From Harriotta raleighana (taxonomy: Eukaryota), in assembly GCA_050575255.1 (NCBI GenBank), contig JBNZDD010013678.1, positions 3,839,405 to 3,903,404 on the forward strand: a DNA stretch of 64,000 nucleotides. The letters are read 5' to 3'. The notes under the pieces were generated by a model that was given only the letters and a program-made list of their open reading frames with translations, was not told the DNA's origin and ran no database searches. How positions within the stretch are numbered: the first letter of the stretch is position 1; the number at the start of each line of letters is the position of its first letter. The position numbers and the translations under genes were made by a program. Of the stretch, positions 17,683-17,959 are shown in pieces.

Positions 17683-17959
17683 CATTGGATGGTCTGATCA
17701 CATGCCTGGCTCATGTGTGGCTAAAACAACGCCATAAAAGTTAGCGTTTGGTGTTAAACTGTGCCTCTACTGTAAGCGTATATCAGCAAATCTCGTAAAA
17801 CCGACAATAAAATGTCCAATACTACAAATCACCGGGCAAATTATGAACTTCTGCGTTCGAATTCGCTCTGTGTTGCTTTGCAGGGCTTGGGAGGCAGAGC
17901 AATTTCTTCAGCTGCCGAGTGACCTTTCATCTTTACATCCAACTTTACTTCAGCGGTGA
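17683..17959 (+). pseudogene. Probable HoxD7 remnant: Hox7-type promoter and 5'UTR up to the ATG at 17843, coding sequence decayed
   Basis: TATATCAGCAAATCTCGTAAAACCGACAATAAAATGTCCAATACTACAAATCACCGGGCAAATTATG matches the recalled HOXB7 leader. Position is directly 3' of HoxD8. No homeobox seen downstream. Confidence 0.72.

Follow-up and report, generated by a model that had tools for sequence, protein, structure and literature searches.

We know of no intact HoxD7 in jawed vertebrates. Genome duplication leads one to expect that the gene did exist at one time, which by itself is no news. The question raised by this locus is what remains where HoxD7 stood and why it has been kept. It bears on a dispute about Hox 5' leaders, whose conservation is attributed either to translational control or to promoter elements. 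A fossil which matches its paralogs like a live leader up to the ATG, and which has no Hox protein to translate, is a natural control for this dispute. The argument for promoters and against translation has already been made for live Hoxa genes (bioRxiv 10.1101/2022.02.10.479744). New here are an AATAAA that is specific to the fossil and a weak hint of its re-use as the 3' end of HoxD8.

The window, by which we mean the whole 64-kb stretch of DNA that was analysed, contains seven homeoboxes, all on the + strand. Judged by gene order and protein ends, these are in order Hox10, 9, 8, 5, 4, 3 and 2, without Hox7 or Hox6. The sole Rfam match in the window is miR-10 at 35570-35641. HoxD5 is reported from cartilaginous fishes, whereas mammals and teleosts have lost it (PMC1845163); the complete HoxC cluster is a pointer to a chimaera (PMC3707753). 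Four Hox clusters are present in the 1.1 Gb genome, and the names A, B, C and D were assigned to them by gene content, not by a tree. Hox7 exon-1 matches occur at two places genome-wide, A7 and B7. The slot in which HoxD7 would be expected is delimited by the following features:

15564 to 16541, + strand: HoxD8 coding region in two exons, the upstream neighbour (homeodomain and hexapeptide exon)
17678 to 17845, + strand: fossil of the lost HoxD7, comprising its proximal promoter and its 5' leader up to and including the old ATG (DNA, profile, pattern and alignment-score searches)
20718 to 20930, + strand: conserved element common to the four clusters, the downstream synteny bracket of the fossil (E 8e-20 to B, 6e-19 to A, 5e-7 to C)

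We presume the last of these to be the sequence known as the 'H8/7-6 four-cluster sequence'; it contains a Hox-type site, CATTGG and GGTCATGTG. The remnant had been placed 1.1-1.3 kb past the HoxD8 stop in an earlier reading from the sequence alone (the sequence-only reading), which agrees with the stop at 16541 and a fossil ATG 1302 nt further on. A further 2929 nt separate this ATG from the four-cluster element. The corresponding distances in HoxB are 1489 nt from the HoxB8 stop to the HoxB7 ATG and 4010 nt from there to the element. Lying between Hox8 and the four-cluster element on the same strand, as required of a Hox7 paralog, the fossil occupies the HoxD7 slot. Compared with B and A, the interval from its ATG to the four-cluster element is reduced by 1.1-1.8 kb, so that the loss probably involved both deletion and decay.

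Homology to Hox7 was assessed against the Hox7 genes of the same genome, not against the human HOXB7 leader. A DNA search of the genome with 17660-17860 (E <= 10) yielded two matches, the fossil itself and the HoxB7 leader with E 1.4e-9, and a local search matched the HoxA7 leader with 72% identity over 102 nt. The comparison with HoxA7 and HoxB7 upstream sequences, proposed earlier as a check, thus gave significant alignments, both of which stop at ATGA. A profile of the A7 and B7 leaders matched 17678-17845 at E 2.7e-15, the next match in the window having E 3.5. With leaders scored as 200 nt plus ATG, the local alignment scores were 100 (B7) and 83 (A7), and none of 500 dinucleotide shuffles in either case scored as high (maximum 35). 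Eleven other Hox leaders scored 16-29 against the fossil and a wider set of 23 non-Hox7 leaders scored 14-30; from this wider set A3 and B4 were dropped because their starts were not found by pattern, and groups 1 and 10-14 were left out. An equally good match outside Hox7, which would speak against the assignment, did not appear (at most 30 against 100 and 83). Finally, a 22-base pattern from the shared columns has exactly three sites in 1.1 Gb (B7, A7 and the fossil) and its reversed control has none. As the pattern was derived from these three sites, its value lies in the absence of a fourth.

The conservation of the fossil equals that of a typical live leader but does not surpass it. Live HoxD-versus-A/B leader pairs (n = 9) score 26-180, and the fossil's scores of 83 and 100 exceed five and six of them, respectively. 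The idea that the fossil resembles its paralogs more than live leaders resemble each other across clusters failed when more groups were included (A4-D4 180, A5-D5 174). Given the specific A7/B7 homology and the position in the HoxD7 slot, we are nearly certain that the fossil is the 5' end (promoter and leader) of the lost HoxD7, as the sequence-only reading had claimed.

The motifs CATTGG (17683-17688), CACATG (17699-17704), GCCATAAAA (17731-17739), TATATCA (17779-17785) and the ATG (17843-17845) all lie where they were first reported. The anatomy of the fossil is as follows:

17683 to 17717, + strand: reverse CCAAT box (17683-17688) and E-boxes CACATG (17699-17704) and CATGTG (17712-17717), by motif position; factor names are predicted
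17731 to 17739, + strand: GCCATAAAA, a CDX-type site by motif, without counterpart in A7/B7 in the alignments
17747 to 17845, + strand: core block, including the invariant CTCGTAAAACCGACA (17792-17806); 72/98 identical to B7 and 71/97 to A7
17806 to 17811, + strand: AATAAA, candidate distal poly(A) signal of HoxD8; ACTGAA in both HoxA7 and HoxB7; a contig of a relative (X3, see below) ends at 17837

For comparison, A7 and B7 are identical to each other at 80/97 positions of the core. CATTGG and the two E-boxes stand at -160/-144/-131 in the fossil and at -154/-138/-125 in B7, which gives a CCAAT-to-E-box spacing of 16 and 13 nt in both; the spacing in A7 differs. Each fossil E-box is one change at a CpG away from the HoxB7 CACGTG and still fits CANNTG. 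By motif, we take the CCAAT box to be a candidate NF-Y-type site, the E-boxes to be candidate bHLH-type sites and CTCGTAAAACCGACA to be a posterior Hox/Cdx-type site. CCATAAA is a CDX site (PMC8330917). In the relative, the change C17733A converts CCATAAA to CAATAAA, which is still of Hox/Cdx type and also forms a second AATAAA poly(A) hexamer. The AATAAA at 17806-17811 is specific to the fossil when set against A7 and B7; ACTGAA is taken as the ancestral state from these two paralogs only.

The equivalent region of mouse Hoxa7, once 'IRES-like', was shown to be an E-box promoter, and double E-box mutation eliminates its activity (10.1101/2022.02.10.479744). In addition, the length of Hox leaders in CAGE data falls short of their annotation (PMC8892498). 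From these two results, the fossil probably consists of promoter in its upstream half and of leader in the blocks close to the ATG. The earlier label 'leader' for the whole remnant therefore holds near the ATG and gives way from -160 to about -100, where the sequence is probably promoter rather than 5' UTR.

Beyond the ATG, the coding sequence is gone. Searches with the A7/B7 exons over 16542-27034 gave nothing significant by tblastn or nhmmer (nhmmer E at least 1.7), and the similarity to A7/B7 after the ATG is at shuffle level: 50 and 320 of 500 shuffles reached the local scores, and 170-784 of 1000 the ATG-anchored ones. The 2.9 kb downstream of the fossil ATG are retained without trace of an exon, intron or homeobox, and no recognisable exon-1 or homeobox remnant, by which Hox pseudogenes are classically identified, was found at the locus. 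The collapse of similarity after the ATG and the erasure of the HoxD7 coding sequence, both read from the sequence alone, were thus borne out by tblastn with Hox7, nhmmer and ATG-anchored alignment. The best hit, a homeobox-like translation at 20212-20271 (E 0.018), was rejected, as its start falls within a CA repeat and a score this high was reached by block shuffles 13 times in 200; it lies about 2.4 kb past the old ATG, a plausible exon 2 distance. An anchored HoxC6 match after the ATG was also rejected (1/1000 at one of three lengths, in 39 tests); it makes no syntenic sense. A pyrimidine-rich tract ending in TTTGCAG (17862-17883), after the old ATG, resembles a 3' splice acceptor and bears a weak likeness to the end of the HoxC5 intron (E 0.3); the contigs described next showed no joint at this tract.

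Four contig sets of a relative (X1-X4), presumed to be RNA, were aligned to 17120-20700 at 85%. They give no strand or levels and have no DNA-run control, and their ends are a weak hint at best. Bridging contigs were found in two of the four runs, X2 (1278 nt) and X3 (1226 nt), which come from two studies. Their depths are 159.5 and 113.9, respectively, compared with 3-15 for the other pieces, a few short repeat matches excluded. Both follow the HoxD8 3' UTR to 17287, continue over 400 letters that are unaligned at 85%, and re-enter at 17696. The X4 contig stops at 17251, and X1 has no cover at the fossil. Contig cover is absent at 17960-20590, which is no evidence of silence; a low-depth contig extends from 20590 toward the element at 20718-20930.

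Over 17696-17837 the relative has 3 differences and 2 gaps in 142 nt (94-97% alike), whereas the 408 nt preceding 17696 do not align at 85%. The fossil changes more slowly than its flank, and a near-identical stretch beside an unalignable one makes purifying selection, as postulated earlier, highly probable. Neither the AATAAA at 17806-17811 nor the old ATG at 17843-17845 has a listed difference. Constraint drops after the ATG, with about 6 differences (by subtraction) in 17838-17878 against 3 in the preceding 142 nt. A fossil under selection whose coding sequence is gone is consistent with the earlier suggestion that Hox leader conservation is independent of translation of the Hox protein.

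The same contigs point to the HoxD8 transcript. Two further features are needed here:

17258 to 17287, + strand: proximal HoxD8 poly(A) signal (ATTAAA at 17258, AATAAA at 17266) and likely cleavage region, putatively in use; hexamers, and likeness to the relative ends at 17287
17837 to 17885, + strand: end region of the two bridging contigs (X3 at 17837; X2 at 17878 plus 7 letters)

The last letter of the X3 contig is C17837, which lies 26 nt past the AATAAA and is followed directly by three genomic As. The X2 contig ends at 17878 plus 7 unaligned letters, about 48 nt beyond the X3 end and about 74 nt after the AATAAA. In the bridging contigs we saw no joint or loose end leading downstream from the fossil, and at their ends no untemplated A tail (contigs only). 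If the contigs are RNA, this RNA stops at the fossil and does not begin there, which gives no support to the earlier proposal of a promoter for a downstream or read-through RNA. The fossil likely lies inside the HoxD8 3' UTR. Chance agreement has to be considered: AATAAA occurs at 1.4 per kb, positions 10-35 nt after an AATAAA make up 3.5% of the window, and those also at the start of an A run 0.27%, both percentages having been obtained post hoc. A downstream G/T tract is present but unremarkable: 25% of 40-nt windows are as G+T rich and 15% as GT/TG rich. The contig ends hint, weakly, at a distal poly(A) site for HoxD8, and whether such a site is in use near the fossil AATAAA we consider evenly balanced. 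The proximal signal (17258-17271), conserved to 17287, may be the main HoxD8 site, so that the cover of the fossil could reflect a small amount of read-through masked by the mean depth of the contig.

As an explanation we propose that the HoxD7 promoter and leader were kept as a DNA cis-element and were secondarily re-used as the 3' end of HoxD8. For this combination as a whole we see an even chance; a role at the DNA level as the reason for retention is, taken by itself, fairly probable. The breadth and spacing of the kept motifs suggest selection on DNA-binding sites. NF-Y-, bHLH- and Hox/Cdx-type factors would still bind the CCAAT box, the twin E-boxes and the TCGTAAAA/CCATAAA sites, and the bound module may act enhancer-like on neighbouring HoxD genes. 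The AATAAA, gained later, would have turned the leader into the distal 3' end of the HoxD8 mRNA, with part of HoxD8 transcription passing the proximal signal at 17258-17271 and being cleaved near 17837-17840. With an early AATAAA and no downstream exon or intron, any RNA from the old promoter would be short and unstable; by analogy with PMC6172195, such truncation by an early signal could lead to an enhancer-like state. It counts against retained sites that both fossil E-boxes are no longer the canonical CACGTG. A bolder version, in which the 5' end of an early-lost Hox gene was turned round, its promoter motifs becoming a shared cis-element and two base changes creating a polyadenylation site for the upstream gene, with the same element behind HoxD8 in sharks and bony vertebrates, is possible and rather doubtful.

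The strongest rival is that the fossil is still a working promoter, of a lncRNA, of an antisense RNA over HoxD8, or of a non-coding first exon spliced to HoxD5/D4/D3, possibly in the embryo only. The full promoter anatomy with HoxB7 spacing would fit, as would a CpG observed/expected ratio of 0.80 in the fossil versus 0.68 in the window. Hox clusters are known to have upstream promoters that several genes share and to produce long polycistronic transcripts (PMC1831499; PMC2148072), an antisense RNA spans human HOXD4-D10 (PMC8293171), and, the contigs being strandless, a contig end could be the 5' end of an antisense RNA. Still, we regard a working promoter as unlikely: both bridging contigs stop at the fossil, with nothing attached downstream, a divergent antisense RNA would start to the left of the fossil and not cover 17696-17880, and an AATAAA just behind the likely start is expected to destabilise a sense RNA (by analogy, PMC6172195).

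Slightly less credit goes to retention at the RNA level only, in which the fossil provides the last part of a long HoxD8 3' UTR together with the poly(A) site, and its DNA motifs are irrelevant. The contigs do join the HoxD8 3' UTR to the fossil and end there; an AATAAA was gained, the relative has a second one, and a TGTA (17771-17774) lies upstream of the hexamer. This account leaves unexplained the exact HoxB7 spacing of the CCAAT box and both E-boxes, as well as the blocks 60-120 nt upstream of the hexamer that still match the paralogs. The kept promoter-type motifs are spread across 160 nt, far beyond the needs of a poly(A) signal, and the 408 nt between the two UTR blocks are not conserved.

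A neutral leftover, in which the coding sequence was deleted in one step and the leader persists in a slowly evolving lineage, is improbable. It would account for the sharp boundary at ATGA, and the shortening of the interval to the four-cluster element by 1.1-1.8 kb relative to B and A means that some deletion occurred. However, 2.9 kb are still present without exon, intron or homeobox trace, the flank is unaligned at 85% in the relative where the fossil is 94-97% alike, and the mismatches to the paralogs cluster between the motifs.

The last rival concerns the reading frame that begins at the old ATG:

17843 to 17959, + strand: 38-codon ORF from the old ATG, not Hox-like and most likely incidental (ORF counts, anchored alignment, Pfam, the relative's extra differences)

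That it encodes a functional 38-residue micropeptide, as had also been suggested, is hardly credible: the ATG does stand in paralog context (AAATTATGA) and is without listed difference in the relative, but 26 of the 180 ATGs of the interval open frames of at least 38 codons, and the likeness to the relative breaks down directly behind the ATG, so that the ORF is neither longer nor more conserved than chance, its second half is covered by neither contig, and it has no Pfam match at E <= 1 (a weak point, the B7 exon-1 control having none either).

Lost Hox genes do not leave leaders as a general rule, an idea we rejected after three null results. Between HoxC8 and C6, a Hox7 leader was looked for without success (best E 0.73-1.2), and the element, being lost in HoxC, is thus dispensable in one cluster. 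No trace of Hox8 leaders was found in A9-A7, a weak test as live Hox8 leaders barely match each other, and none of Hox6 leaders in the D interval. The leaders of C3, C5, C6 and C8 have little or no paralog match, and those of C4 and C9 do match; the divergence of HoxC upstream regions has been uneven, and the Hox7 leader may be gone there for that reason. Two scans of metagenomes for orthologs returned 0 and 9 loci, and those 9 consist of the searched core alone, with no homeobox.

Regulatory fossils of lost genes, paralogous Hox non-coding elements and Hox pseudogenes with coding remnants are already known kinds. The direct paralog of the fossil is the HoxA7/HoxB7 proximal promoter and leader (Akirtava et al., 10.1101/2022.02.10.479744), with CCAAT box, two E-boxes, core and ATG in the same order and 72-73% identity over about 98 nt. 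In contrast to HoxA7/HoxB7, no gene follows the fossil, its E-boxes read CACATG/CATGTG, and it has the GCCATAAAA insert and the AATAAA. If HoxD7 is absent from all jawed vertebrates, its loss is presumably older than the mammalian cases of lncRNAs derived from lost coding genes. In those GLCP-derived lncRNAs (Hezroni et al., PMC5577775), as at this locus, a syntenic remnant of a lost gene is similar to live homologs. Retention of such remnants is mostly attributed to enhancer selection, and JPX keeps a start-codon region (PMC5577775, which does not contain the word 'Hox' in its main text). Unlike for them, no independent RNA was seen for the fossil in the contigs; contig cover is continuous with the HoxD8 3' UTR (two of four runs), and the fossil apparently lies 3'-terminally in the mRNA of the upstream gene.

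Conservation between clusters since the genome duplications is likewise found in paralogous Hox non-coding sequences (Matsunami 2010 as cited in PMC3595034), and non-coding conservation between clusters in the HOXA-AS3/HOXB-AS3 promoters (PMC8330917). Present in A, B and D but not in C, the fossil is not one of the three four-cluster elements and, unlike other paralogous Hox non-coding elements, it is the 5' end of a gene up to the ATG. Pipefish hoxa7a (PMC5168715) and caecilian HoxD12 (PMC4470032) are also remnants of lost Hox genes at the expected cluster position, but there it is the coding sequence that decayed, whereas here only the upstream part remains. By analogy with Carelli et al. 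(PMC6172195), a promoter that gains a poly(A) signal and loses splicing would become enhancer-like, as we propose for the fossil; the switches described there are recent, mammalian and mostly from enhancer to promoter, whereas the fossil would be the reverse, with an activity that is only proposed. In the mouse, it is likely the Hoxd8-Hoxd4 interval as a whole that shields posterior genes from the enhancers of Hoxd4 (PMC2642670).

A full-text literature search, with classic footprinting and cluster element lists outside its scope, found no description of a HoxD7 leader remnant, and none is mentioned in the passages of PMC1831499, PMC8293171, PMC2148072 and PMC3707753. We would not be surprised either way if the sequence were already an unnamed footprint in classic Hox element lists or supplements, and it may be listed as a two- or three-cluster element. 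A prior reading as the HoxD7 5' end or the HoxD8 3' end is less likely than that. Should the 3'-end reading be true, one gene's start would have become its neighbour's end, in a clear case. A Hox gene can be lost and still leave its regulatory contribution in the cluster, a point that matters for explaining why clusters remain intact. If the element is present behind HoxD8 in sharks and bony vertebrates, it would be a natural test that leader hyperconservation is not about translation.

Two minor observations concern HoxD8 and its paralog HoxB8. A 21-nt block at 17005-17025 in the HoxD8 3' UTR, which we take to be likely a miR-196 site, is nearly identical to one in the HoxB8 3' UTR. Both genes are named as miR-196 targets (PMC2148072). 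In addition, CTCGTAAAA is found upstream of both HoxD8 (14066) and HoxB8 (about 0.9 kb before the ATG) and is possibly a shared Hox8 enhancer site.
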